A stretch of 32,000 nt of DNA from an uncultured archaeon. Lineage in GTDB: Archaea; Asgardarchaeota; Thorarchaeia; Thorarchaeales; Thorarchaeaceae. Below, in pieces: positions 823-14,575 of this stretch. The stretch is taken from the NCBI GenBank assembly GCA_964354495.1, contig CAYHAA010000001.1:338075-370074 (forward strand), written 5' to 3'. The first letter of the stretch is position 1; each line of letters begins with the position of its first letter. The translations under genes were made by a program, and so were the position numbers. A model generated the notes under the pieces. That model did no database searches. It saw only the letters and a program-made list of their open reading frames with translations, and was not told the DNA's origin.

Positions 823-1764
823 TCAACTACTAGATGATGCCGCAATCCAGAAGAACAGACCGCCCAAGATCCACACAAAAAGGCCCGCACCCAGTAGGAC
901 CCCAAGCGTAGCTCCCATCCCGGATGAGCCAAAATTCACATGCATATTCGTGAATGCCTTGAAGCCTCCAACATACTTCGTTTCATAATCGCAGTGGAAT
1001 TCCTTGTCAGTCACTGCCCCACATATCTCACAGACGTATCTGTTTTGAAAGACTGCTCCGAGAACGCTGTCAACATTGCAGCCTATGAAGCCAGTCAATA
1101 CAGTAAGAGGTATGAGGACGTAGATCTGTTCAACTGATGTGACTGCAGGTGCCCAACCCGGTACAAAGACTGAGAAGACAACAGCAATTACCCCGATTAT
1201 AAGACCTGCTAAAAGTGCAACACCCTCACCAAGCAAGGAGACTGCGCCGATTGTTCCGGTTGGTACCTTCCTTCGAAGATTGGTGATTAATCTTGGCTTG
1301 CTCTTGCTGAAGACGCCTAATTCGCTAGCCAAAGTATCCGCGGCTGTAGTTGAAACTGCTCCGACATAACCCCCGAAGAGAAAGAACGGCCAGCCTGCAG
1401 CTGCTAAGTCTGGAACGAAACTTACAAGGTACATGGCGACCGAGAACATCATTGGAATGAGTCCACTTCCGAGTACATTCTTCCATGATCTCTTACCTTT
1501 TCCTTCTTGAGCACAGTTCTTCTGCATTTTTGCCTTGTACTTGTATTTCGTGGCAATCCCTGCACTCATGAAATAGAAAAGCACAATCACGAAGGCTGAA
1601 ACGCCACCTGTGTACCAGATAGTAAATCCCACAATGAAGGCACTGATGAGACCAGAAATATCGACAAAGTGAGCCTTATAGGCTAGCGCTCCGACAGCAC
1701 CCATCACCAATAGTCCGGAAACAGCCGGATGCGCAAGTATCTCAAACATTCCTTTCACATCCAT
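823..1764 (-). CDS. DUF92/TMEM19-family membrane protein (CTP-dependent kinase/cytidylyltransferase-like)
   Basis: Motifs GKRSWKNVLGSG, AADTLASELG, PTGTIGAVSLLG, VDSVLGAVFQ and NMHVNF, plus a C-x2-C...H-C insert (CEICGAVTDKEFHC); multiple TM helices. Confidence 0.85.
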   Translation of the reverse strand: MDVKGMFEILAHPAVSGLLVMGAVGALAYKAHFVDISGLISAFIVGFTIWYTGGVSAFVIVLFYFMSAGIATKYKYKAKMQKNCAQEGKGKRSWKNVLGSGLIPMMFSVAMYLVSFVPDLAAAGWPFFLFGGYVGAVSTTAADTLASELGVFSKSKPRLITNLRRKVPTGTIGAVSLLGEGVALLAGLIIGVIAVVFSVFVPGWAPAVTSVEQIYVLIPLTVLTGFIGCNVDSVLGAVFQNRYVCEICGAVTDKEFHCDYETKYVGGFKAFTNMHVNFGSSGMGATLGVLLGAGLFVWILGGLFFWIAASSSS

Positions 1765-2095: not shown

Positions 2096-5000
2096 CTAAT
2101 AGACTGTGAACTGCTTCTTCACTATCTCTACTGCACGATTTGGAAGCGGACGACCGTGTTGCGAGATGACTGCATCTAGGTAGTAGCCTGAAACAACATC
2201 GATGGGTGGGGTCAGCCATCTCACAATCATTGTGTTCTTCTTTCCGCTTCCCAAAGGAATCTCGTACTCCTTGATAATCTCACGTCTTGACATTAGTCTA
2301 AGATTGATTGCCAGGCCCTTCAGATCCTCTCTTGCGCTCTCCACATCCACAACAATATCGACTGGAGTGAGTCTGGCAACAAGACCTGGAATCTCATCAC
2401 CTGTTTCGTTTCTTATTGAAAAGCCGACCTTGAAGAATGGTCTTTCAATAGCCTTGACTTTGAACCGTTGGCTATTCTCATTGGATTGAGTTCCACAAAT
2501 CAGGCTCGCCTTCAAGTGTGCTGTGCTCATTTCTGCACCTAGGGGCACTCTGAATTGGACTGGAATCATTTTTGCTTTTTCAGGTTCTAGGTTGATGTTT
2601 CTCTCAATCAGGCTGAAGTTACCAGCAATTGATTCAAGGCTCACAGAAAGACTGCAATCTGTTGGCTCTACATGGCCGCACTCGATCTGTATTGTCAGCT
2701 GAACCAATTGGTCAGGTAGCGTGTAACTGGGAAGCCCGATGAAATCAATCGCTGCAAAACCTGCCGTGGGACCACCAACGATGTCTATTGTTGCCGAACG
2801 CCGATCCATCTCCATGTCTGCATAGCTGAGCACTGCAACAAGCGAGACCGTCTTTGGGCTTGTCGACGACTGTGGAGCTGGGATTGTGATGGGACCGAAG
2901 GCTAATGATAGGTTCTTGCTCTGTTTTACAGGCTGCCGAAGGACTATGTGCTCCTCACCATCAGGAAACACGAAAGATAGGGAGAGAATAGCTGGGTCTC
3001 CCTGCTCCATATTCCTTCGGATTCGCAACCATCCTGACACCTTGCCTCCGATGTGAGAACGTTGGGGAACTCGAAGTGAGTCTAGATTGATGCGAGTCGC
3101 GATTTGATCTATACTGAATCTGTCCGACTCGGCTGATGCTATGAGACTTCCCCTCTCAATTACGCGAGTGCGAATTACACCAACTCTGTCGGACTGAGTC
3201 ATCTTCTCCACATGAGGGACTCTCCACCGAAAAGTCGCTGTTCTGCCCATGAACTCCCCGTATTGCAGGCTTTCAATTTCAGTCGACTTCTCTGATTCTG
3301 AATAATAGTCAACAATCATCCTTGCTGATGTTCCAATCACCTTGCTCCTATCACTTACAACTACACTCCCCGTCACGAATTCGCCAGGCATGTAACTGCT
3401 TTTCAAATCTGATTCTAGGATGGCTTGCGGCCCCCTTCTCACAAATCCCACGTAGAAGGGCTTTGATGTTCCTTCAGCTATTTCCATATTCTCTTCGTTA
3501 AGCAAGCGAATCTGGAGAACACATCTCTCAACACCTTCAGCAGCATCCGGTGGAATTAACAGAGGCGGCAGGTGTGAACTCTCAAGGACCGTGATTTCTC
3601 CTCCCTCAATCTCTAGCATCTCTCTAGTTCCGACTATGACGCGTTCGAGATTGGGTGCCAGTATATTGATTTGACAGCTGACGAATGATTTCGAAGGATA
3701 ATTGGTTTCGATTTCTCCGACAAAAAGAACAGGCGTCTTGCCGTCTGCAAACTGAGTTGTCGTGCCTGGTCTGATTGATGCACTCATCCAATACGTGTTG
3801 ATAGTACTAGTAAAACTGATCTGGCGGCCTGCAAAGCCCACTTCCGCAATTACGTTGTAGGCAGTTGTGTCCTTTCGAGTTCTGAAGACAACTCGGGAAA
3901 CATGGATTTCTCCCGCTTCGATTCTGTCAACTGTCAGGACATTGCCATCCACAGTATTCCTGCGAGAGTCTTCTATTGAGTACTTCACAGTCAGGCTCTC
4001 GAGGCTTCTACCAGTACTATTGCGGACGAGGATGTTGAATTCTGCCTCTTGACCCGCGAATGCTCTATCAGAGTCTATGACGATTTCAGGTTCAAGCCCC
4101 TTCCACCAACATAGCCACGTAGGAAGATGCGGGGCTCCTTCAATTGGATCGTAGAGCCAGTTGGTGCTACATTCTCTCGTGACCTCTGCTAGACGTTTCA
4201 AGAGTGCAACCATATTGAAATCGGATTTTGCAAATACATCGAGCTGAAAGTCTGCCTCAGTTGTCCTCGGATTTACGTACTCACTTCCGAATATCGAAAC
4301 GAGCAATGCTTGAATGAATGGATTCTCAACAACCTTGAGGTCGTCCAGCTCATCGCGAATCAGGTAGAGCATTGAAACAACGGCGTCTCCAATGTATCTG
4401 TTCCGTCGTGTTGAATCAATAATGCCTAAGTCAGACACTTGATGATTGTAGACTGTAAGGAAATCATCCTCACCCTCGCCAGGCTTGAATGGACCCCAGA
4501 GTCCGGCAGCCACTGCAGAGGCTCTATTTGCGCTTAGTGATTTTGCACCAACATCTAGCACTCTCTGGCCTTGATTGACCATGCGTTTAGCTTTTAGAGC
4601 AAGAGCTTGGAGGATTAGTGCTAGTCCCATCCTTCTTGGAATACTCAGCTGAGTATCAAACACTCGAAGTTCAATCGTTCCGTAGTCTGTGTACGGATAG
4701 CAGTCTACCATTCTTGCATAGCTTCTGTTTACATGCTTTGCAAATGCTTCCTTGTCTGCTATCCTGATGTATGGAATCATCTCAAACTCGTTAGTTGGAC
4801 CCATTTGTGTTGTGTTCTTGAACAGCCTAATTGATCTCTTGCAACGGGGTGCACGGAACACGCCTTTGTCATCTATCGTTATTTCATCGCTTGTCTTCTT
4901 GTTTTCAAATGGCGAATTCACGGATAATGCAATGAGATGCGGAATGAAATTGCGGATCATGTTATAGACAGCGATTTTGGTGGTTTCATCAACTTCCGGG

Positions 5001-5521
5001 CTGAGAATGTGATGGTGTTCACCAAATGACAGATTGCGTAGGTACTCCTGTGTTGGATTCAGGCCAGTCGATATGAGAACCGCTTGGGAATCCTTGGGTA
5101 TGGACTCATATGAGATAGCTATCAATGTCTGTATCCACCATGCAAGCTCTTCGAGTGTCGTGCACGGAGGCGTTGCGACTTCCAGAATCCAGGTCAGGCT
5201 GACAACATTCGGGTCATGTCCCAGGAGAGTATATTCCCTTAGCTGTCCCGCAGGATTCTTATACGTGGCAACTATTCGTGAACCTCGTTCTCCTTCTTCT
5301 GTCTGCGCAGAATGATCATATTTCTGTCTGACAGTTTCCACTGATGAGGACCTGATTTTCTTGTCAAGAAGCCCCTTTGCGCTTGAGACTATCTTGTCGA
5401 ACAGATCTAAGACGTCTTCTCCACGAATCCAAGTACCATCTTTGCGAATGACCTGAAGTTCAACCTCTATGCCATGAGGAAAGGGCAACTGCATCTCTGA
5501 ATCACTTGAGGTCGATGTCAT
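2096..5521 (-). CDS. Glutamate-cysteine ligase family 2 (GCS2/YbdK-type carboxylate-amine ligase) fused to about six C-terminal beta-sandwich (Ig-like) domains, 1141 aa
   Basis: GIEVELQ (ExE), LEVATPPC, STGLNP, FGEHHH, IPHLIALSVNSPF, RSIR and YGTIELRVFD match the GCS2 catalytic motifs. The C-terminal ~665 aa is strand-rich with repeated domain-start and domain-end patterns. ATG at 5521 is preferred over GTG 5530 because AGGTG lies just upstream. Confidence 0.85.
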   Translation of the reverse strand: MTSTSSDSEMQLPFPHGIEVELQVIRKDGTWIRGEDVLDLFDKIVSSAKGLLDKKIRSSSVETVRQKYDHSAQTEEGERGSRIVATYKNPAGQLREYTLLGHDPNVVSLTWILEVATPPCTTLEELAWWIQTLIAISYESIPKDSQAVLISTGLNPTQEYLRNLSFGEHHHILSPEVDETTKIAVYNMIRNFIPHLIALSVNSPFENKKTSDEITIDDKGVFRAPRCKRSIRLFKNTTQMGPTNEFEMIPYIRIADKEAFAKHVNRSYARMVDCYPYTDYGTIELRVFDTQLSIPRRMGLALILQALALKAKRMVNQGQRVLDVGAKSLSANRASAVAAGLWGPFKPGEGEDDFLTVYNHQVSDLGIIDSTRRNRYIGDAVVSMLYLIRDELDDLKVVENPFIQALLVSIFGSEYVNPRTTEADFQLDVFAKSDFNMVALLKRLAEVTRECSTNWLYDPIEGAPHLPTWLCWWKGLEPEIVIDSDRAFAGQEAEFNILVRNSTGRSLESLTVKYSIEDSRRNTVDGNVLTVDRIEAGEIHVSRVVFRTRKDTTAYNVIAEVGFAGRQISFTSTINTYWMSASIRPGTTTQFADGKTPVLFVGEIETNYPSKSFVSCQINILAPNLERVIVGTREMLEIEGGEITVLESSHLPPLLIPPDAAEGVERCVLQIRLLNEENMEIAEGTSKPFYVGFVRRGPQAILESDLKSSYMPGEFVTGSVVVSDRSKVIGTSARMIVDYYSESEKSTEIESLQYGEFMGRTATFRWRVPHVEKMTQSDRVGVIRTRVIERGSLIASAESDRFSIDQIATRINLDSLRVPQRSHIGGKVSGWLRIRRNMEQGDPAILSLSFVFPDGEEHIVLRQPVKQSKNLSLAFGPITIPAPQSSTSPKTVSLVAVLSYADMEMDRRSATIDIVGGPTAGFAAIDFIGLPSYTLPDQLVQLTIQIECGHVEPTDCSLSVSLESIAGNFSLIERNINLEPEKAKMIPVQFRVPLGAEMSTAHLKASLICGTQSNENSQRFKVKAIERPFFKVGFSIRNETGDEIPGLVARLTPVDIVVDVESAREDLKGLAINLRLMSRREIIKEYEIPLGSGKKNTMIVRWLTPPIDVVSGYYLDAVISQHGRPLPNRAVEIVKKQFTVY

Positions 5522-5530
5522 TCTTAACAC

Positions 5531-6202
5531 CTAGTGGGTCGTGGTGGCTTCGAGAATTTCTGCAATCTTGGGTACATTCCCTGCAAGTGTTGAGGAGAGC
5601 GTCATTTCTAGAACCACAACATTTCCAATATCTCTTGCCAATTCAGTCAGCTTGTATGTGAGCAATCCTCCCCCGAATTCACCATCATCCTCAAGCACTT
5701 GGAGGTTCAGCTCTCTGAGCTTCTCCTTGAATGTCGATATCTCTTTCGCATTACCATATCTGTATCTTGTTCCTAGGATTACTGCTTTGCTGCTATCTAT
5801 GACAGCAGGTAATGACGACCACCTCAGATTGATTATCAGTTTGGATGTCTTGAGTTTGAGCTGTGCTCTGATGATCTTCATGATGGAATCACATGTCGCT
5901 GGTGATTCGCTTCGGTCTGAGTCTTTTATGATGACCGGCAATCTGAACCCTTTCCCTCTAAGCCCCTCAAACGCGTCGTGAATTGGATCGCCCTTGATGT
6001 CGGCGGTCAACGCACATACAATGCCAGTTATTGAACCCTGAACTAACAGACCACTTGTAGAGATGTCATCTACTCGCAGGTTGCTTTCAATGGATTCCAG
6101 ACTAGTGTGGAGACTGGATAGTCGCTGTAAGAGACTGCCAAGAATCTGCTCTGCCCTTTCTAGTTCTCGGAAAAGGTCTGCTCCTTCACTAGCACTGGTC
6201 AT
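5531..6202 (-). CDS. N-terminal coiled coil plus degenerate N-formylglutamate amidohydrolase (FGase)-like fold, probably catalytically inactive
   Basis: C-terminal half follows the FGase pattern (LIINLRW ~ lldlHS; VILGT; EFGGGLLT ~ PyxGGxit; VVLEM ~ aiQiE), but the His metal ligands are missing. The stop lies 9 nt before the ligase ATG. Confidence 0.55.
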   Translation of the reverse strand: MTSASEGADLFRELERAEQILGSLLQRLSSLHTSLESIESNLRVDDISTSGLLVQGSITGIVCALTADIKGDPIHDAFEGLRGKGFRLPVIIKDSDRSESPATCDSIMKIIRAQLKLKTSKLIINLRWSSLPAVIDSSKAVILGTRYRYGNAKEISTFKEKLRELNLQVLEDDGEFGGGLLTYKLTELARDIGNVVVLEMTLSSTLAGNVPKIAEILEATTTH

Positions 6203-6294: not shown

Positions 6295-6732
6295 TTAAAC
6301 ATCTGCAATCAGGCTCATCAACTCATCAATCTTTGCCCTAAGTTCCTTCAGACGATACCAAGTTGACTCACGCCCACTTTGATCTGCAAGTTTCCTAACG
6401 ATGATACCATAGTCAACGCCAGCAAGGTCTCCTAGCAAGATGAGTGCACTCTTTGACTTGAAGTGAGTTTCGTTCACTCTGCCGTTTCTGAACCTAGTGA
6501 CTAGAGGTTCAAGCGCTCGTTCGGCCGAATCTATCTCGATTAATGCACCGCGGTAGTTGCTCTTTGGGTCCTTTATGGCATACCCTCCGACCAAAGGAGT
6601 CATTCCAACGCCTAATGACCCTTTCCCGATATCATCAAGTATGTCCATAGCTTTCTGGTAAAACTCATCACCGTCAACTAGACACTTCTTGATTGCACTC
6701 AAGATTCGAGGTCGTTCGATGGAGTCGGTCAT
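6295..6732 (-). CDS. Hypothetical alpha-helical protein, 145 aa
   Basis: Strong SD GAGGTGA before ATG 6732 (MTDSIERPRIL...). The longer ORF-track start overlaps the oppF terminator. No recognised motif. Confidence 0.7.
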   Translation of the reverse strand: MTDSIERPRILSAIKKCLVDGDEFYQKAMDILDDIGKGSLGVGMTPLVGGYAIKDPKSNYRGALIEIDSAERALEPLVTRFRNGRVNETHFKSKSALILLGDLAGVDYGIIVRKLADQSGRESTWYRLKELRAKIDELMSLIADV

Positions 6733-6808: not shown

Positions 6809-7870
6809 CTATAATTGGACTTCCGGTAGCTCACCAGCAAAGTGGCATGCCACAACATGCCCTTCACCTACATCTCTGTCTTCGGGGACCTCTCTCACGC
6901 AGATTTCCTGCGCATATGGACACCTTGGATGGAACCGGCAACCTGAAGGCACATTTATGGGACTTGGAGGTTCTCCCTTCAAGGATTCGATACGTCGTTT
7001 GATAGTGGGGTCTCCAGAAGGCACTGCTGAAATCAGTGCTCGAGTGTACGGATGCAGTGGACTGAAAGCTACATCGTGCGCTGGCCCCAGCTCCATGACT
7101 CTCCCTAGATACATGATTCCGATTCTATCAGCAATATAGGTTGCGACAGCCAGGTCATGGGTGATAAACAGATACGTGAGTCCAAGCTCCTCACGCAGAT
7201 TCAGCAATAGGTTCAGGATTTCTGCCCTTATTGACACGTCAAGCATTGAAACAGGCTCATCAGCCACCATGAACTCAGGATGCAGCATGAGAGCCCTGGC
7301 AACTGATATTCTCTGTCTCTGTCCTCCTGAGAGCTCATGAGGATACCTGTCAATATAGTCCTCTGCCGGAGTAAGGGCAACGCTCTCCAGTGCCTCGAGG
7401 ACTCTCAGACGTCTTTGGCTCGGCGTTAGAGGCATCTTGTGAACCATAAGTGGCTCTTGCACTATACTAAAGACACTCTGCTTCGGGTTAAGGGACTCGT
7501 AGGGATCTTGGAATGTAATCTGCATGCGCTTCCTGAGTTCCTTGATCTCATTTCTGTCAAGAGTCGCCAAGTTCTGGCCCGCGTAGATTACCTCTCCATC
7601 AGTAGGGATTTCTAAGTGTAGGATGCATCTGCCCGTTGTGGTCTTCCCGCAACCAGATTCTCCTGCTAGAACAAGTATCTCCCCTTTCTTGATATCGAAA
7701 GTCACTCCGTCTACTGCCTTCACGAAGAGCTCTTGTCTGTACAACATCGATGATAGGAACCCTGTGTTGACTGCAAACCATTTTCGCATGTTCTTAACAG
7801 CTATTAGAGTGCTACCGTTCTTGACATCAACGGAACCCTGTAGAATTCTTGATTCATCTGTAGTCATCAT
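6809..7870 (-). CDS. oppF: Oligopeptide/dipeptide ABC transporter ATP-binding protein (OppF/DppF type)
   Basis: Walker [26 protein letters not shown], Walker B MVADEP, C-terminal HPYT...GCRFHPRC...ACH. Confidence 0.92.
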   Translation of the reverse strand: MMTTDESRILQGSVDVKNGSTLIAVKNMRKWFAVNTGFLSSMLYRQELFVKAVDGVTFDIKKGEILVLAGESGCGKTTTGRCILHLEIPTDGEVIYAGQNLATLDRNEIKELRKRMQITFQDPYESLNPKQSVFSIVQEPLMVHKMPLTPSQRRLRVLEALESVALTPAEDYIDRYPHELSGGQRQRISVARALMLHPEFMVADEPVSMLDVSIRAEILNLLLNLREELGLTYLFITHDLAVATYIADRIGIMYLGRVMELGPAHDVAFSPLHPYTRALISAVPSGDPTIKRRIESLKGEPPSPINVPSGCRFHPRCPYAQEICVREVPEDRDVGEGHVVACHFAGELPEVQL

Positions 7871-7873
7871 CTA

Positions 7874-8863
7874 TCACTCCAAGTCTACTTCAATCTCGCC
7901 TCTAAGCTGCTCAGCAAAGTGACAGGAAACAAACCTACCCGGTTCGACCTCCAGAGCCTGCGGGTCCTCTTTTGAACAAATGTCCTGCGCATATGGACAT
8001 CGAGGATGGAACCGGCAACCCGTCGGCGGCGAAATCAGATCTGGCGGAGACCCCGGAATCGAAGTCAGTTTCTTCTTCTCTGCCTTCACCATACTCGGAA
8101 TCGCACCTACTAGACCAGTAGCGTATGGATGAATTGGGTCCTTGAATACCGATACAACATCGGCCAGCTCTACAATCTTACCTGCATACATGATTGCAGT
8201 CTTGTCGCAGGTCTCTGCTATGACACTGAGGTCATGCGTAATCAAAATGAGTGATAAGCCAAGGTCCTTCTGGAGCTTCTGCATGAGCTTCAGAATTTGT
8301 GCTTGGATTGTGACATCAAGCGCGGTGGTTGGCTCATCAGCAATGACGAGATCTGGATTGCATGCAAGAGCCATGGCTATCATTGCTCTTTGGCGCATTC
8401 CTCCTGAAAACTCGTGGGGGTAGTTGTGAATGCGCCCCGGATCAAGACCAACCATCTCGAAGAGCTTGGCGCAACGGTCTAGTGCCTCTTCCTCGGTCAC
8501 GTTCTCATGCATCAAGATTGCTTCTGCAATCTGTTCTCCTATCTCAAACACGGGATTCAGTGCGTTCATGGCTCCTTGGAAGACGATAGCTACGTTCTTC
8601 CATCGGATGTCACGCATCTCCTTAGCGGTCTTGCGGATTAGGTCGTCACCCTTGAAGTACACGTTTCCGCCAACGATGTTTGCCGCAGGTGGGAGAAGCT
8701 GCATGATTGAATATGCCAAGCTTGACTTTCCACAACCGCTCTCCCCCGCAAGTCCGATGGACTCACCGGGCTCCAGCATCAAGGAAACGTTGTCGACTGC
8801 TTTTACAAGACCCTTCTGTGTTTGGTAATACATCCTAAGATTACGAATGTCCAGCAGGGGCAT
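7874..8863 (-). CDS. oppD: Oligopeptide/dipeptide ABC transporter ATP-binding protein (OppD/DppD type)
   Basis: [45 protein letters not shown]. Start taken at ATG 8863 (MPLLDIRNL) after SD GGAGTG. Confidence 0.92.
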
Positions 8864-9232
8864 GATTGTACACTCCATCGAGCCAAAAATGGCCCTGGGC
8901 AGGGCATTTGCCTCACCCTTCTTGGGATACCGCTGCCATGAGGTCGGCTTAAATATGTTGCTTTCAAAGACATTCGTCCGAAGGCCGTCTGACACTGGCA
9001 TGCCCACTGGTACCAGATGCCAATCACGAAAGTGAAGCTATCTTTACATCTGCCATATCGGAGCTTGGGTCAAGGCTCTTGTTCGATTAGAAAGAGTAAA
9101 AGCACTTTGATGTATAGTCGCCACTGAACAAAGATGTCAGGAATGACAATAAGATCCTTTCCAAGGACTCAGAATAGACCTCAGAAGCGAATTCTCTTGA
9201 TTCCCTTCATTCTTATGATAGGTGGTTGGACT

Positions 9233-9457
9233 ATGACATTTGTCCACTTCCTCCAGTTCCTAGGAACCATCATTGCCATGACAGGAGCACTGACAACATT
9301 CCTAGTGGGGGCATTGTATGCAGATCTCTGGGCTTCACATCGAAGGACACAACAGATGATAGAAGAACGCCAAGAAGAAGGTCGCGAAACTCCTGATGTC
9401 ACTGCGGATATTCCACCAGCTGAAGATCCTTTTGAAGAGACCTATGGTGAAGAGTAA
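9233..9457 (+). CDS. Small single-pass membrane protein with an acidic tail, 74 aa
   Basis: SD AGGTGG before ATG 9233; hydrophobic segment FLQFLGTIIAMTGALTTFLVGALY followed by an E/D/P-rich tail. Confidence 0.55.
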   Translation: MTFVHFLQFLGTIIAMTGALTTFLVGALYADLWASHRRTQQMIEERQEEGRETPDVTADIPPAEDPFEETYGEE

Positions 9458-9648
9458 TTCCCCCAATCTACAAAGTAGATGATAGTGACTATCAAACTAA
9501 TTAGTCGGGTACCCGAACCAATTCCTTTTTTAGGCAAGCTTTCAGGGTCGTGACCAAGTATACCAAACAAGAGGGCTTCGCGGCTCCATTGAACGAGTAC
9601 AGATTCGTTCACATGAGTGCGAATAGTCCTACCGATGGAGGATAACAC

Positions 9649-11235
9649 TTGTCCGAGTCCCATAAGGGTTGGAAAGATCGTAATTGGTATGTCAGTATCA
9701 CTGGTTTCTGGAAAGAATATCGCAAGCATAGAATTGGGTTAGTCGGCCTTTTTCTGATTATGTTTTTCGTAGGCATGGCGATATTTGCTGAACAATTGGT
9801 CACAAATGATCCATCGCCGCAGGCCAAGGTTGCTCCTACCTATCTTATGCCATCGTGGTTGTCAGTGTTTGATCCCTCAGGTGTTATAACAGGTGACATT
9901 CTGCCAGACCCCGATATAGATCACGAACCGATTGTCGGAGGAAATGGAACTAGTTCTGAGTTCAGCGCACTATATGCTCCCAAAGGCGGTTCGAATCTCG
10001 ATAGTTATGTGAACCTGACATGGGCACATACCGCTGGGACTCAGCTTGACTTTGGAATTGATCCTAACAGTATCCTGCCTGATTATACTGACCTAGCTTA
10101 CTTTGAGCAGAACTTCACTTGGTCATTCAATAGCCGACCAAGTGATGTGAACATGTCTATTACTTTTGGCACAACTCGAACAGGTGATTTTGCTGCCGGC
10201 GCTCAGGCTGGAAATGCCCTCATGTTCCGACTCTATGTTTGGTTTATTGACTCCTCAGGCGAATGGACAAAGGTGTATGAGACAAGAGATGCCACTTTTG
10301 TAGAAGAGATACAAGAGAGGCGGATCAGTCTGAACTACATCAGTATCAAGTCCATTTTTGATGGAACGACGATGACTAATGGCACACAAGCAGATCCAAC
10401 GGATACTATTCGGATGATGGTCGGTCTTGCACCCTATCGTTGGTTCGATAGCAGCTCATATGGCTCTGGCAATTACACCTATCCCTGGCAATACTACAAT
10501 GGCTCAGTGACAGTCAAAGTCACCAAACTGATGATGATTGGCTATGGCGAGTATTTTGGACTATTGGGAACCACAAATTGGGGTGCTGATGCCTATTCAC
10601 AGTTAATCTATGGCAGCAGAATCTCCCTCATTATTGGCGTTCTCGCCACTGGTCTATCGACCGCAGTTGGTGTCATTGTCGGAATGGTCGCAGGCTATTT
10701 TGGCGGCAAGATCGATGAAGTGTTGATGAGAGTTGTCGACTTCCTACTGGTCATTCCGGGTTTGCCGTTGATGATGGTGCTAGCGGCGTTTCTGGGAGCA
10801 AGGATAGAAAACATCATCCTAGTCATCGCAATACTAGGATGGACCGGGACGTCGCGGCTCATACGGTCTCAGGTCTTGGCCGAAAAGAATAAGGCCTACG
10901 TCGAGTCAGCCCGAGCGATTGGTGCCTCTGACACCTACATCATGTTCCGGCATATTTTGCCCAACGTGACACCAATCCTGTTCGCAAATATCACTCTAGG
11001 CGTTGTTGGTGCAATCCTTTCAGAAGCAGGACTGTCATTCCTTGGCCTGACCAATCCTGAAGACCCAAGTTGGGGCAGAATGCTCGCAGATGCAAACACC
11101 GGTGGCGCCTTTAGTAGCGGGGCATGGTGGGTAGTTCTCTTCCCTGGCCTGATGATCACTCTCATCTCACTTGCTTTCACATTCGTGGGGCATACATTAG
11201 ACCAAGTCCTCAACCCACGATTGAGAGAGAGGTAG
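9649..11235 (+). CDS. oppC: Peptide/nickel ABC transporter permease (OppC/DppC type) with a large extracytoplasmic insertion
   Basis: SD GGAGG + TTG; N-terminal FWKEYRKHRIGLVG; LLGTTNWGADAYSQLIYGSRISL; EAA loop YVESARAIGA...RHILPN; SFLGL; SWGRML. Confidence 0.9.
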   Translation: MSESHKGWKDRNWYVSITGFWKEYRKHRIGLVGLFLIMFFVGMAIFAEQLVTNDPSPQAKVAPTYLMPSWLSVFDPSGVITGDILPDPDIDHEPIVGGNGTSSEFSALYAPKGGSNLDSYVNLTWAHTAGTQLDFGIDPNSILPDYTDLAYFEQNFTWSFNSRPSDVNMSITFGTTRTGDFAAGAQAGNALMFRLYVWFIDSSGEWTKVYETRDATFVEEIQERRISLNYISIKSIFDGTTMTNGTQADPTDTIRMMVGLAPYRWFDSSSYGSGNYTYPWQYYNGSVTVKVTKLMMIGYGEYFGLLGTTNWGADAYSQLIYGSRISLIIGVLATGLSTAVGVIVGMVAGYFGGKIDEVLMRVVDFLLVIPGLPLMMVLAAFLGARIENIILVIAILGWTGTSRLIRSQVLAEKNKAYVESARAIGASDTYIMFRHILPNVTPILFANITLGVVGAILSEAGLSFLGLTNPEDPSWGRMLADANTGGAFSSGAWWVVLFPGLMITLISLAFTFVGHTLDQVLNPRLRER

Positions 11236-11248
11236 AAACGGATGTCAA

Positions 11249-11289
11249 GATAGGAGGCTGTCCGCCTTCCTATCCCTCCCCTTTTTTTT
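11249..11289 (+). terminator. Hairpin + C-rich spacer + T8 after oppC
   Basis: GATAGGAGGC-tgtcc-GCCTTCCTATC (one bulge), then CCTCCCC and TTTTTTTT. Confidence 0.55.
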
Positions 11290-11406
11290 GCCATTTCTTC
11301 CTTTCGTCAGCCGAGAGCACTACGCTTATTAGGTAGTTGTTTGATGTTTTGCCCGTAACGGTACTTAGTATCTCTATGTACTGGACGAATTGGAGTGAGT
11401 CTAGTA

Positions 11407-12468
11407 ATGGGACTTCGAGAATATGTCATTCGACGGTCAATCTACATGTTTCTGCTTGTAGTGGCTGTTGTCTGTTTCAACTTCTTCCTGTTCAGACTCC
11501 CGACATTCCTCTTTGGGGCCAGTCCGGTTAGCCTGATGCTCAGCGACGAACTTCGCCGCAACCTGACACAGGAGCTTCTAGAGCAGATGTATTTGAACTT
11601 TGGTCTTGTACCCGATCCTGACATTTTCGACTGGATCTACATGTTCTGGAGGTACGTTGTCAGCATGTTCACAGGCAACTTCGGAGTCTCCTTCTTGACC
11701 CAGCGACCCGTGATGGACTCTATTGTGGAGCGCCTGCCAAACACCTTGTTGCTAATGGGTACATCCTCAATGGTTTCCATACTCTTGGGAATCTGGACCG
11801 GTGTGAAGGTAGCTGCCGACCCTGGGTCTCGAAAGGATGTCGGCGCAGTCACTTTGGCTTTATTCATCTATGCCCTGCCTGTGTTTTGGCTGGGCATGAT
11901 GCTCTTGCTGGTCTTTGGCTTCATGCTTCCAGAGTGGACTGATGCCATGTGGGGCGTCCGCATCGGGTTCCCGCAGTTTGGCACTATCAGCTATGAAGTG
12001 TGGGAGGTCGCGAGGACCAACCCATTTGGTGCACTGATGGTCGCAGGCGACTTGCTTCACCATCTAATCCTGCCAATGATCACTCTTGGCATAGGTGGAT
12101 ACGGTGGATACTTCCTCTACATGCGGAACAACCTGATAGACGTCATGACAGAGGACTACATCTTAACAGCACGTGCAAAGGGTCTAGATGAGAATCAGGT
12201 GCTCTACAAACACGGCCTGAAGAATGCCATGCTTCCAATGGTCACTATCATTGCGATGAACTTCGGTTTCCTCATTAATGGAGCAACACTTACGGAAACG
12301 GTATTCACTTGGAGAGGATTAGGGCGGTTCATATTTGAGAGTCTGTTGCTAATGGACTATCCTGTTATCCAGACAATCTTCATGATTATCGCAATAACTG
12401 CAATATTGGCCAACTTTGTTGCAGACCTGTTATATGGCGTCTTGGATCCCCGAATCAAATACGGGTAG
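11407..12468 (+). CDS. oppB: Peptide/nickel ABC transporter permease (OppB/DppB type)
   Basis: GNFGVSF, RLPNTLLL, PVFWLG, HLILP, EDYILTARAKGL, KHGLKNAMLP, DLLYGVLDPRIK. Start at ATG 11407 after SD GGAGTGA. Confidence 0.92.
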   Translation: MGLREYVIRRSIYMFLLVVAVVCFNFFLFRLPTFLFGASPVSLMLSDELRRNLTQELLEQMYLNFGLVPDPDIFDWIYMFWRYVVSMFTGNFGVSFLTQRPVMDSIVERLPNTLLLMGTSSMVSILLGIWTGVKVAADPGSRKDVGAVTLALFIYALPVFWLGMMLLLVFGFMLPEWTDAMWGVRIGFPQFGTISYEVWEVARTNPFGALMVAGDLLHHLILPMITLGIGGYGGYFLYMRNNLIDVMTEDYILTARAKGLDENQVLYKHGLKNAMLPMVTIIAMNFGFLINGATLTETVFTWRGLGRFIFESLLLMDYPVIQTIFMIIAITAILANFVADLLYGVLDPRIKYG

Positions 12469-12482
12469 TCAACGAACTGAGC

Positions 12483-12520
12483 GGGTCGCGTTTTGCTCGA
12501 CCCCTCTCTCGCTTTTTTCT
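12483..12520 (+). terminator. Hairpin + CT-rich spacer + oligo-T after oppB
   Basis: GGGTCG-N9-CGACCC, then CTCTCTCGC and TTTTTT. Confidence 0.45.
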
Positions 12521-12718
12521 TGTTCTCATATGGCATGTTTCACAGTGACGATAGCAATCATTTCGTTGTTCTATTTTTTTATTCGACCAGCATCTAACTA
12601 TCATTTTGCTATGTTCAGATGTACTCAACGCTTACAGAATACGCAATGCTTTTATTGACCGCTGGCAAGGCCCTCTCATCCGAATTCGACTCGGAAGGAA
12701 AGGAGATAGAGAGAAAAC

Positions 12719-14575
12719 ATGCTTTCTAAAAGTAACAAGAGACTGCTAGCTATCACCTTTGCCGCTGCTTTCTTTCTCATGGCAGTATCCCCTGCTTTTG
12801 TACAAGCCGTGGATCCTTATAATTGGGAATTGAAAACCGGCCCATATGTAGACAAGATCGTCTACAAGGTGATAAATAGCCAGGACCAAAGGGTTTTGGC
12901 AATGCTGGCTGGAGAAATCGAAATGGACAACAGTTTCTTCGACCCAGTGCATTACGAAACTCTTGATAATGACCCAGACATTGATATATTCAGTGCTCTG
13001 AGAAACGGCTATGGCCACATCACAATCAACTGTCGCGATGCACCTCTGAATGAGAGTGTTCTGAGAAGAGCCTTCGCTTTTGCGTTTGATAAGGAAAGGG
13101 TCAGTGCTGAAGTCTTGGATGGTTATTCCCAGACTCACGACTCCTTGGTACCTTATCCAAATGGATGGTGCATTGAAGAGGAGTTCACCGATCGCTACTA
13201 CACTGCTCAGGTAACTAAGGGCAATGAAATTCTCAACGCCTCTGGTCTATTCGGTTATGGACCGGGCGGCTGGAGGCAATACAAGGGTCAAACAATCAAC
13301 ACGATTGAAATCGAGTACTCATCCTCCTCAGTTGAGATTGCTGGTGGTACCGCACAGGTCGGTGTTGATGCCCTGCTAGCGCTCGGTATTCCTGCTGTAA
13401 CAAAGGCAGCTGAATTCAACGAGTACATCTCAAGGCTGGACTCTCATGGTGATTACGACATGGTCTTCTATGCTCTGAACTTCTATAGCAACGATGTTGA
13501 CTGGCTTGCGTACGAGTTCTGGTCAGAGTATGCTGACACACCATACCAGAATCCAACTAACTTCAGGAACGCAACCTACGATTCATGCAGACAGCAACTG
13601 CTCTACGGTACGACCTATGATGAGGTCTACAATGCGTCAGCCTGGATGCAGAGGATTCTCCAGTACAACGTTCCAAGACTGGTTGCCTATGAGAATACCT
13701 ACAACCAAGCCTACAGGAATGACAAGTTCACTGGACATGTTTCTGATCTTGGTAGATACATTGTTGGTCCTTGGACCATGAGAAAGGTACACCTGATCGA
13801 TGGAACCATGGGTGGTACATTACCCATCGCCATCAGTGAGGAACCTGACAGCTTCAATATCTATGTCACGAACTCTGCCTACTCCGCAGCAGTCCTAGAG
13901 AACCTGTGGCCATCACTCTACAGCTTTGGTCCGGACCTCAATCCATTCCCAGACCTGGCCGAGAACCTGCTCACTGAAACACATGCTGACAATCCTGCAG
14001 TCCCCGCAGGTCATACTCGGTTCACCGTCGATATTGTCCAGAATGCAACTTGGAGCGATGGTGTGCCTCTGACTGCCGACGATGTAGCATTCTCAATGAC
14101 CTATGCCTTTGAAAGCTATGTCTATGGTAACCCGGCCGGAACTGATATTGGTGACTTGGTCGCAGCCTACGCACCAACTCCATACAGAGTTGTCATTGAG
14201 TTCAGCACTGAGTCATACTGGCACTTCTCCAACTTCGCCTACGACACTGTCATACCCAAGCACATCTTCAACGATGTTGATGGGATTGGATATGCCGGTT
14301 GGAACACATGGAACCCAGTATTTGATCCAGCCGAGCCCAACGTGAACTGTGGACCCTTCAAGTTCACCGACTTTGAGGTCGGCGAGTTCTATGAAGTAAC
14401 ATGGAACCCAGCCTTCTACTTCGGTATTGACCACCCAGAACCAACAACCACCACAACCACAACTACAAGCGGTGGAGTTGCTCCTGTTGATTGGACATTG
14501 GCCCTTGTAGCTGGAGCTGTTGGAGCTGCAGTCGTTATTCTCGTTGGTGGCTTTGTGCTACTCAGACAGAAGTAA
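12719..14575 (+). CDS. oppA: Family-5 ABC solute-binding protein (OppA/DppA-like), circularly permuted, with signal peptide, Thr-rich linker and C-terminal TM anchor
   Basis: Signal peptide (MLSKSNKRLLAITF...VQA); family-5 motifs LAGEIEM, LRRAFAFAFDK, SDGVPLTADDVAFS and CGPFK present but in permuted order; T8 linker; TM LALVAGAVGAAVVILVGGFVLL followed by RQK. Confidence 0.88.
   Translation: MLSKSNKRLLAITFAAAFFLMAVSPAFVQAVDPYNWELKTGPYVDKIVYKVINSQDQRVLAMLAGEIEMDNSFFDPVHYETLDNDPDIDIFSALRNGYGHITINCRDAPLNESVLRRAFAFAFDKERVSAEVLDGYSQTHDSLVPYPNGWCIEEEFTDRYYTAQVTKGNEILNASGLFGYGPGGWRQYKGQTINTIEIEYSSSSVEIAGGTAQVGVDALLALGIPAVTKAAEFNEYISRLDSHGDYDMVFYALNFYSNDVDWLAYEFWSEYADTPYQNPTNFRNATYDSCRQQLLYGTTYDEVYNASAWMQRILQYNVPRLVAYENTYNQAYRNDKFTGHVSDLGRYIVGPWTMRKVHLIDGTMGGTLPIAISEEPDSFNIYVTNSAYSAAVLENLWPSLYSFGPDLNPFPDLAENLLTETHADNPAVPAGHTRFTVDIVQNATWSDGVPLTADDVAFSMTYAFESYVYGNPAGTDIGDLVAAYAPTPYRVVIEFSTESYWHFSNFAYDTVIPKHIFNDVDGIGYAGWNTWNPVFDPAEPNVNCGPFKFTDFEVGEFYEVTWNPAFYFGIDHPEPTTTTTTTTSGGVAPVDWTLALVAGAVGAAVVILVGGFVLLRQK
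14444..14467 (+). repeat. ACN codon repeat encoding the poly-Thr (T8) linker
   Basis: aca acc acc aca acc aca act aca immediately before the membrane anchor of OppA. Confidence 0.8.

Follow-up and report, generated by a model that had tools for sequence, protein, structure and literature searches.

The gene at positions 2096 to 5521 (minus strand) of the window, i.e., the whole 32,000-nucleotide (nt) stretch of a Thorarchaeales genome analysed here (GCA_964354495.1, contig CAYHAA010000001.1), encodes a protein of 1141 amino acids (aa) in which a YbdK/GCS2-type ligase domain is followed by a long beta-sandwich tail. Our comparisons indicated that the ligase domain belongs to a distinct, small clade of the YbdK/GCS2 family, widespread in Asgard archaea, and that clade members are accompanied by two further protein families, an Amidohydro_2 amidohydrolase (AH) and a protein combining an N-terminal Cdc48-N-like domain with a vWA domain (NvWA). 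A recognisable amide-ligase core is found within a conserved, widely distributed and unstudied three-gene module, which we argue strongly to be one functional unit and which may follow a write/erase/bind logic. Literature searches on Asgard amide ligases turned up no account of this clade, of its architectures or of the ligase-hydrolase-vWA module.

For the linkage test, open reading frames (ORFs) from 14 loci, grouped into ten sets, were compared all against all by BLAST. Besides the ligase, only the AH and NvWA families recur in all ten sets, within ~11 kb of the ligase. The AH proteins are ~490-540 aa long and share 27-36% identity with the copy of Thorarchaeota (E 1e-26 to 1e-71), and the NvWA proteins, of ~360-500 aa, share 28-39% (E 1e-30 to 1e-92); the two were merged into a single BLAST cluster by fusion proteins, and in a few loci only one of them lay inside the stretch covered. 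AH orthologues keep the complete metal-ligand set DAHxH, H181, H249 and D307, NvWA orthologues keep DxSxS, Thr and Asp of the metal ion-dependent adhesion site (MIDAS), and at the level of sequence both partners look functional.

The partner genes adjoin the ligase in several lineages. The gene order is AH, NvWA and ligase in the Asgardarchaeum locus, and vWA, a 399-aa gene without known identity, ligase and AH in the Heimdallarchaeota locus; the partners also lie next to the ligase in an Odinarchaeota locus, in that of a 1374-aa ligase and in that of a giant ligase flanked by two NvWA genes. In Lokiarchaeum ossiferum B-35 (L015, 4535-9885), a HEAT protein (NEF87_004190, 645 aa), the ligase (UYP47906, 587 aa) and the amidohydrolase (NEF87_004192, 527 aa) are encoded consecutively on the same strand. 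In the genome studied here, both partners are located just before the start of the window, ~6-9 kb from the ligase (contig positions: AH, 331199-332704; NvWA, 332963-334063; ligase, 340170-343595), and nearby are a gene of a HEAT-repeat protein, additional vWA genes and the gene of an 890-aa fusion of AH and NvWA. The 890-aa protein (L024, 8391-11063, minus strand) aligns with AH over its N-terminal half (E 5e-7) and with NvWA over its C-terminal half (E 1e-9) and has no Pfam match; it appears to be a degenerate copy in which both partner genes are fused.

Several further observations were made at these loci. The HEAT protein of L. ossiferum consists of an N-terminal beta-sandwich and helical repeats (UniRef label, HEAT repeat protein), and a homologue of this partner adjoins the ligase in a second Loki-type family as well (24% identity, E 9e-35). 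Upstream of the Odinarchaeota ligase (L020, 841-8008) are the genes of an Arf-like small GTPase and of a 780-aa protein that contains CarboxypepD_reg/PEGA-type sandwiches and a C-terminal EAP30/Vps36-like winged-helix region of the ESCRT-II type (E 4.9e-5); this 780-aa protein is also encoded beside the ligase at L016, the locus of Asgardarchaeum.

The phyletic pattern was then determined by searching ligase, AH and NvWA each over the same 400 genomes of the phylum, with the whole-protein profile used for the ligase. Counts are given below as genomes with a match over genomes sampled; family labels are codes of the search tool.

f1 (Thorarchaeota, the family of the genome studied): ligase 75/85, AH 75/85, NvWA 75/85
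f11: ligase 18/22, AH 16/22, NvWA 17/22
f13: ligase 12/12, AH 11/12, NvWA 12/12
f21: ligase 11/14, AH 11/14, NvWA 10/14
f22 (largest Asgard family sampled): ligase 120/135, AH 113/135, NvWA 110/135
f8: ligase, AH and NvWA all 0/31
f10: ligase, AH and NvWA all 0/12
f14: ligase, AH and NvWA all 0/19

Eight genomes of Thorarchaeota are without any of the three genes, and six of these are 91-99% complete. Conversely, each genome of f15 and f16 has 2 ligases, mostly 2 AH and 3-4 NvWA, arranged in two separate clusters. It is because of this repeated joint loss and joint duplication that we consider ligase, AH and NvWA to be one functional unit. Two individual genomes deserve mention. One complete f16 genome (L012 and L013) contains two full copies of the module, each with AH, NvWA and ligase side by side; the two ligase ORFs (1191 and 1399 aa) have different tails, and the longer one has a faint match to the ASH domain (E 0.006). 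In one genome of Thorarchaeota (G315, 97% complete), a 708-aa frame (C27, 82034-84109) matches the ligase profile over positions 7-693 (E 3.6e-132), AH and NvWA have no match, and the module may be in decay.

The gene and the domains of its product are as follows (AF2, AlphaFold2; VIA, structural matches given as Z scores below).

2096..5521, minus strand: ligase-plus-tail gene, 1141 aa (stop codon at 2096-2098, ATG at 5521-5519; lengths and starts of homologues)
4100..5521, minus strand: ligase domain, YbdK/GCS2-type, residues 1-474 (Pfam, NCBIfam and PDB matches, AF2 model, VIA, conserved catalytic residues)
3791..4099, minus strand: tail unit D1, residues 475-577, beta-sandwich (AF2 strands; profile matches in other architectures)
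3434..3790, minus strand: tail unit D2, residues 578-696, beta-sandwich (AF2 model, unit boundaries, VIA)
3101..3433, minus strand: tail unit D3, residues 697-807, beta-sandwich (AF2 model; weak in-register similarity to D4 and D5)
2768..3100, minus strand: tail unit D4, residues 808-918, beta-sandwich (AF2 model, VIA)
2444..2767, minus strand: tail unit D5, residues 919-1026, beta-sandwich (AF2 model, VIA)
2099..2443, minus strand: tail unit D6, residues 1027-1141, beta-sandwich (AF2 model, VIA)

The minus-strand ORF is open over 1144 codons (2096..5530) with GTG as its first codon, and the ATG at 5521-5519, three codons further in, is the start used by homologues; residues are numbered from this ATG throughout. 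Among 5.8 billion protein clusters, 146 relatives of the 1141-aa protein were found, nearly all of 1141-1153 aa and 49-100% identity, and the 120 homologues listed are all 1141-1153 aa or fragments and begin at the ATG at 5521. Almost all of the relatives that carry names there belong to Candidatus Thorarchaeota, the nearest named genome being that of Thorarchaeota isolate OWC2 (94% identity in the ligase domain), and a scan of genome contigs with peptide patterns specific to Thorarchaeota returned genomes of that group only, one of them labelled Hermodarchaeota. No signal peptide or transmembrane helix was predicted in the 1141-aa protein, whose highest 19-residue Kyte-Doolittle mean is 1.37 and whose N-terminus is hydrophilic. 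Thus, the gene coordinates and the cytoplasmic location given in the original prediction, which had been made from the DNA letters and their translation, are both borne out.

The ligase domain is very divergent. Pfam GCS2 (PF04107) matches it at 25.6 bits against a cut-off of 21, in a match that spans 46 residues only, and the NCBIfam YbdK subfamily model TIGR02050 reaches E 7e-16 and 58.5 bits, about one third of its cut-off of 176.4; with all NCBIfam GshA/YbdK models, equivalog models included, the domain scores far below the cut-offs (58 bits versus 176-437). YbdK in the PDB (1r8g) is matched at E 2e-3 by the single sequence and at 8e-7 by the 49-sequence profile, in an alignment restricted to three motifs. 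The AF2 model of the domain (pTM 0.82, mean pLDDT 74) has a YbdK-type glutamine-synthetase-like fold: Foldseek matched it to YbdK 1tt4 at E 2.3e-12 (TM-score 0.70 by target), and VIA ranked YbdK 1tt4/1r8g first with Z scores of 25.7/25.4 (rmsd 3.5, 317 residues aligned, 20-21% identity), ahead of plant glutamate-cysteine ligase (19.5), Dop (19.3), PafA (17.4) and glutamine synthetases (~15). The Foldseek comparison of an AlphaFold model proposed with the original prediction therefore returned YbdK for the ligase, and beta-sandwich arrays for the tail.

Residue conservation was assessed on the ligase-domain profile, to which 63 members of the clade and 25 small relatives of the classical kind were aligned. 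The catalytic set predicted earlier (ExE, E, HxH, R and ExR) is present as E19/E21, E114, H169/H171, R190 and E284/R286/D289, and these residues are invariant across 49 homologues of Thorarchaeota, among which the domain has a mean column identity of 79%. In the 63 clade members, conservation extends to GIEVE (GhExE), E114, H169xH171, R190, N202-S203-P204, R270 and E284xR286xxD289, and the same residues are conserved in the 25 small relatives wherever their alignment covers them. Individually, D289 is kept in 63 clade members, H171, E284 and R286 in 62, E21 in 61, H169 in 60, and E19 in 56/63, with 6 alignment gaps at the last position. The strand-1 GhExE, the HxH and the strand-6 Ex[RK]xxD are the active-site motifs of carboxylate-amine ligases, and the residues conserved here are those for metal, ATP and acyl-phosphate by which this class is defined (PMC2588565). 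Since the catalytic, metal and phosphate residues are conserved, we take the ligase as active; it is apparently a catalytically competent, ATP-dependent, amide-forming carboxylate-amine ligase.

One arginine, in strand 5, is conserved in all carboxylate-amine/ammonia ligases except GatB/GatE (PMC2588565). The corresponding YbdK strand, D-I-R-P, aligns to D-C-Y-P in the window ligase, an Arg-to-Tyr replacement that had been read from the sequence before and was confirmed by the alignment with YbdK of the PDB. Across the clade, the position is occupied by Tyr in 32 and Phe in 22 members (54/63), and among the 25 nearest small relatives by T12/R6/S3, such that Arg is mostly gone there too. By these alignments the substitution is real and clade-typical, yet not unique to the clade, and because small GCS2 relatives often are without this Arg, its loss alone is no marker of a new substrate class. 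Residues S230, R232, N236 and Q239, all within loop 202-238, are invariant specifically in the clade, and this conserved segment near the active site is a candidate substrate loop.

These data bear on two alternative explanations. A pseudoenzyme, in which the ligase fold is kept only as a binding scaffold, would account for the loss of the strand-5 Arg and for the low model confidence at loop 202-238; it is very improbable in our view, for the metal- and phosphate-binding residues are all invariant across lineages that are only ~30-50% identical. The other is an ordinary GshA that supplies a low-molecular-weight thiol. In databases, the 1141-aa protein and its homologues are named 'hypothetical', 'glutamate-cysteine ligase family protein' or 'glutamate--cysteine ligase'; the last of these names points in this direction, and the protein is the sole GCS2 homologue in the genome, where no other PF04107 match was found. 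However, its scores are far under every NCBIfam GshA/YbdK cut-off, another residue stands in for the strand-5 Arg, thiol synthesis has no role for a 667-aa tail or for a linkage to vWA and hydrolase genes, and the clade is missing from many Asgard families, so that we consider an ordinary GshA improbable. The 'glutamate--cysteine ligase' labels are probably misleading for inferring thiol metabolism in Asgard genomes, whether the substrate is a protein or a metabolite.

The ligase clade was matched in 261/400 Asgard genomes. Full-length matches were obtained in the family of Thorarchaeota to which the genome belongs (75/85 genomes), and two small sister groups gave matches that extend well into the tail, in frames of similar length; one of these groups bears the name Candidatus Asgardarchaeum and has cluster members labelled Odinarchaeota, and a 1150-aa protein of Odinarchaeota matches profile positions 5-1130. 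Elsewhere, only the ligase domain matches, with E values around 1e-100. In the large Loki-type families, the frames are of ~480-590 aa and have no tail, as in the 587-aa protein of L. ossiferum and in a 562-aa example with a lysine-rich N-terminal extension, and genomes labelled Heimdallarchaeota encode a tail-less ligase of 544 aa. The two paralogues in each f15/f16 genome are represented by frames of ~1190 aa, matching D1 and part of D2, and of ~1100-1410 aa. An exhaustive profile search of 1.84 billion representatives yielded no more than 231 proteins at E 1e-3, of which 101 reached E 1e-30, and classical 350-400-aa GCS2 proteins entered this search only from ~E 1e-30 to ~1e-6. This set contains proteins of 2232-3804 aa, whose ligase domain lies close to the C-terminus, as well as forms of ~1250 aa that carry a double zinc ribbon. 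In the searches made here, clade members with names have so far come only from Asgard genomes.

Hence, one catalytic core carries six sandwiches, tails in proteins of 1230-1410 aa, nothing further, or the bulk of giants of up to 3804 aa. On an unrooted FastTree tree of 64 ligase domains, the six-sandwich forms of Thorarchaeota and Odinarchaeota constitute one well-supported group, and the other architectures likewise cluster by subclade; the classical GCS2 outgroup was dropped by the coverage filter, and the tree is silent on how the clade attaches to classical GCS2. The catalytic core is combined with several unrelated large accessory regions, and the six-sandwich tail is the solution of one branch. 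The earlier expectation that the fusion of ligase and tail is conserved in relatives holds across Thorarchaeota and for genomes that carry the label Odinarchaeota or Asgardarchaeum, and fails for the Loki and Heimdall members; equally, the six-sandwich scaffold is real, and it is a lineage-specific feature rather than a property of the enzyme family. Of the metagenomic giants, P0143 (3551 aa), P0196 (3804 aa) and P0150 (2769 aa) have a C-terminal-proximal ligase and thousands of residues without Pfam match, apart from a helix-hairpin-helix (HHH_5) domain at residues 1005-1058 of P0150. In L023, two N-domain-vWA genes stand one on each side of the gene for a member of the P0150 cluster that is likewise 2769 aa long.

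The AF2 model of residues 475-1141, built from the 49-sequence alignment, is all-beta with a mean pLDDT of 85.9 and contains six units of 103-119 aa. D1 is the most widely shared of them: D1 and part of D2 are matched in the ~1190-aa copy of f15/f16 and in some giants, where profile matches reach positions 636-650. Pairwise hhalign comparison of the six units gave marginal results, with D3~D4 and D3~D5 as the best pairs at E 3e-4, and a recent tandem duplication is unsupported at this value. The six strand-rich units of the original prediction were thus recovered as six modelled sandwiches, whose ends coincide with the KPFYV, DRFSI, ATIDI, QRFKV and KQFTV motifs it had listed, while their repetition is structural only.

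Foldseek matches of the tail in the PDB were chiefly tandem macroglobulin (MG) domains, from complement C4/C3/C5, A2ML1, CD109, TEP1 and bacterial alpha-2-macroglobulin (E 5.5e-19 to 1e-15; low TM-scores of 0.14-0.24). Against AlphaFold DB clusters, the top match was a 1226-aa 'glutamate--cysteine ligase', over its own tail, followed by CARDB, DUF11 and A2M arrays (CARDB arrays at E 1e-21). By VIA, D1-D2 matched transglutaminase C-terminal barrels best (Z 14.2, 198 residues aligned), D4-D5 the FnIII pair of RbmA (Z 12.2) and D5-D6 VPS26B (Z 11.9), and GH2 sandwiches were matched by tail pairs at Z 12.4. The arrestin, macroglobulin and TRAPP-subunit folds proposed earlier could not be told apart, as Z scores are tied at 11-14 among transglutaminase barrels, GH2, RbmA, VPS26 and A2M; what stands of that proposal is a sandwich of the macroglobulin/CARDB/Ig kind. 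No significant Pfam domain was found in the tail (MG2, E 0.13; CARDB, PF07705, E 0.2 and 12.3 bits versus 22.7), and the protein sequence has no CGEQ thioester motif. As modelled, the tail is a string of generic Ig-like sandwiches.

Long strings of ~100-aa beta-sandwiches are likewise known from the MG arrays of alpha-2-macroglobulin, complement C3-C5, CD109 and TEP1 and from CARDB/DUF11 arrays. Unlike MG proteins, the window protein is without thioester domain, CGEQ, bait region and signal peptide; with these low TM-scores, it shares their domain type only and not the arrangement. Transglutaminases (TG3, TG2 and factor XIII) carry a sandwich pair after a catalytic domain that forms gamma-glutamyl amide bonds and include the best VIA match of D1-D2, but the catalytic domains are unrelated (papain-like versus glutamine-synthetase-like), and since the Z score for D1-D2 is only 1-2 above generic matches, we regard this as fold resemblance, not kinship.

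What, then, could the module do? We give an even chance to a reading based on the module as a whole, in which its substrate is a macromolecule or a peptide. By analogy with the superfamily, the ligase would activate a carboxylate by phosphorylation, with a gamma-carboxylate of the glutamate type as the likeliest one, and an amine would attack the acyl-phosphate. The Amidohydro_2 hydrolase is a candidate eraser or processing enzyme that would act on the same bond or on a precursor, and NvWA, through its MIDAS site, may bind an acidic ligand or the substrate, the site itself contacting an acidic group of substrate or product. The six sandwiches of Thorarchaeota and Odinarchaeota may serve as a scaffold on which partner or substrate proteins dock, and the HEAT-repeat proteins and the small protein encoded upstream of the ligase would be lineage-specific extras. 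If the tail is read as a docking scaffold, a protein or peptide, not free cysteine, becomes the likeliest class of substrate. The data show the architecture, the conservation of catalytic residues, the spread of the clade and the linkage and co-occurrence of the genes; what we infer is the chemistry, the direction of the hydrolase reaction, the part played by the tail and the kind of substrate. The Asgard-wide linkage of AH and a MIDAS-vWA protein, the strongest clue and one that the original prediction did not contain, fits a write/erase/bind system better than thiol synthesis. Modification of proteins or peptides by the module is plausible, and the glutamylation/tagging enzyme of that prediction is a hypothesis still.

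A more specific version, that ligase, amidohydrolase and MIDAS-vWA constitute an Asgard-specific reversible protein-modification system, is put forward tentatively, and we hold it to be rather doubtful. In such a system, the tail or a HEAT protein would hold the target, on which the ligase would either add a glutamate-type carboxylate to an amine or amidate a carboxylate of the protein, the vWA MIDAS would read the acidic mark or the unmodified carboxylate, and the hydrolase would remove the mark. A parallel exists in PafA and Dop of Actinobacteria, in which a GCS2-derived ligase acting on protein is paired with a mark-removing enzyme (PMC2588565). Both share superfamily and fold with the window ligase, as their VIA scores illustrate. 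PafA, however, has [QH]x4D (PMC2588565) where strand 6 of the window ligase reads ExRxxD, YbdK is clearly the closer structure, and the candidate eraser of the module is not a paralogue of the ligase but belongs to Amidohydro_2, an unrelated family. The YbdK/GCS2 enzymes (PF04107; YbdK of E. coli, 1r8g, and of Salmonella, 1tt4; GshA of Haloferax) have the same fold, the same GhExE/HxH/ExRxxD motifs and the closest structure. In comparison with YbdK, the window protein is three times longer, its 475-aa catalytic domain has conserved insertions, notably loop 202-238, its clade has Tyr/Phe for the strand-5 Arg, and its six-sandwich tail and its amidohydrolase and vWA companions are foreign to descriptions of YbdK.

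Several points weigh against a macromolecular or peptide substrate and against the module as outlined above. Amidohydro_2 enzymes familiar to date act on small molecules, which favours a metabolite. In Thorarchaeota, AH/NvWA are ~6-10 kb from the ligase with unrelated genes in between (DUF92, Band_7, NfeD and Rce1-like), and these exclude co-transcription of the ligase with AH/NvWA there. The genomes surveyed are related and not independent samples, and co-occurrence is weaker evidence than the raw counts. Clade members from Loki and Heimdall lineages have no tail, which therefore cannot be essential to the core chemistry; these tail-less members and the small-molecule habit of Amidohydro_2 enzymes call most for caution. 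The model of the tail has a pTM of 0.39, such that the relative placement of the units is not reliably predicted, and loop 202-238, conserved and near the active site, has low AF2 confidence. Finally, among the adjacent upstream ORFs, no protein has a Pup-like GGQ/GGE end (their C-termini are ...ATTTH and ...LIADV).

A small-molecule pair is the explanation to which some of these points lead: the ligase would make a gamma-glutamyl or other amide or a dipeptide, the AH would make or degrade a related compound, and the sandwiches would serve oligomerisation, localisation or regulation. Amidohydro_2 is mainly a small-molecule family, and tail-less ligases exist. The closest characterised relatives, i.e., YbdK, GshA, EgtA and plant glutamate-cysteine ligase, all use small substrates (PMC7278568). 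On the other hand, no pathway enzymes such as GshB are consistently found near the ligase, a MIDAS-vWA adaptor as companion and recurring HEAT or giant non-enzymatic regions are atypical of metabolic operons, and large accessory regions of at least four unrelated kinds are found fused to the ligase core. Considering both sides, we view a small-molecule pair as a real possibility, if an unlikely one. A component of a conflict or defence system could likewise be suspected from the highly variable architectures of up to 3804 aa, the duplicated modules and the vWA partners. PADLOC gave no match for the ligase, AH, NvWA or the small neighbours, however, and the gene is single-copy and near-universal in Thorarchaeota and f22 (120/135), strongly conserved and stable in synteny, a housekeeping-like pattern with which a defence role seems quite improbable.

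No closer relatives of eukaryotes are known than the Asgard archaea, whose lineage-specific multi-domain proteins mostly have no known function. If the substrate of the module were a protein, a new post-translational modification pathway would have arisen from a glutathione-type ligase, as pupylation did, and if the modification were reversible as proposed above, it would represent a third prokaryotic tagging chemistry beside the ubiquitin-like and Pup systems; if the substrate were a metabolite, a new Asgard-specific compound would be expected. Since the module is present in the cultured L. ossiferum, it is testable by proteomics and biochemistry.

The neighbourhood of the ligase gene in Thorarchaeota includes two small upstream genes and an ABC transporter, as follows.

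5531..6202, minus strand: gene of a 223-aa protein, directly upstream of the ligase (contiguity; same position in other genomes of Thorarchaeota; 22 homologues)
6295..6732, minus strand: gene of a 145-aa protein, next upstream on the same strand (start at an internal ATG matching homologues of 145-146 aa)
6809-7870, minus strand: oppF-like
7874-9007, minus strand: oppD-like
9649-11235, plus strand: oppC-like
11395-12468, plus strand: oppB-like
12719-14575, plus strand: family-5 solute-binding protein

The gene order oppD, oppF, 145-aa gene, 222-aa gene, ligase and DUF92 is kept in Thorarchaeota down to 52% identity and was not found to recur in the loci of the other Asgard lineages inspected. 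The DUF92 integral membrane protein (823-1764, minus strand, E 3e-65) is encoded directly downstream of the ligase in every genome of Thorarchaeota inspected, and none was seen near the ligase in loci of other lineages. The oligopeptide-type ABC transporter is complete (window 6809-14575); it is found beside the ligase in 4/4 genomes of Thorarchaeota inspected and at no locus examined from Odin, Heimdall, Loki or other lineages, and we rejected it as a functional partner and attribute its position to inherited synteny. The gene for the 145-146-aa protein occupies the same position in three distant genomes of Thorarchaeota, and the protein has no Pfam match.

The TAG stop codon of the 223-aa gene lies 9 nt upstream of the ligase ATG. 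All 22 homologues of its product in a large database are from Thorarchaeota, and its counterpart (222 aa) is absent in the complete genome CP070761 of that group. The protein has no Pfam match up to E 5, and its profile has no match in the PDB; language-model leads to the FGase and gamma-PGA-hydrolase families (0.87, below the reliability line of 0.9) have no HMM or PDB support. It had also been compared with the C-terminal domain of the 620-645-aa Loki partner, with which it shares an EDxGxFxGG-like motif, and this relationship was dismissed at hhalign E values of 0.07 and 0.59. The profile of the 223-aa protein matches a 263-aa gene directly upstream of one f16 ligase copy (L012) at E 1.3e-10, and equally placed Asgardarchaeum and Odinarchaeota genes marginally (E 0.01-0.7). 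We consider it a probable partner of ligases with a beta-sandwich tail and, in the window, one that is probably co-transcribed with the ligase. Invariant in the 223-aa protein are R16, E39, C63, D96, E99, R146 and D172, together with a GEFGGG motif and ExTxS.

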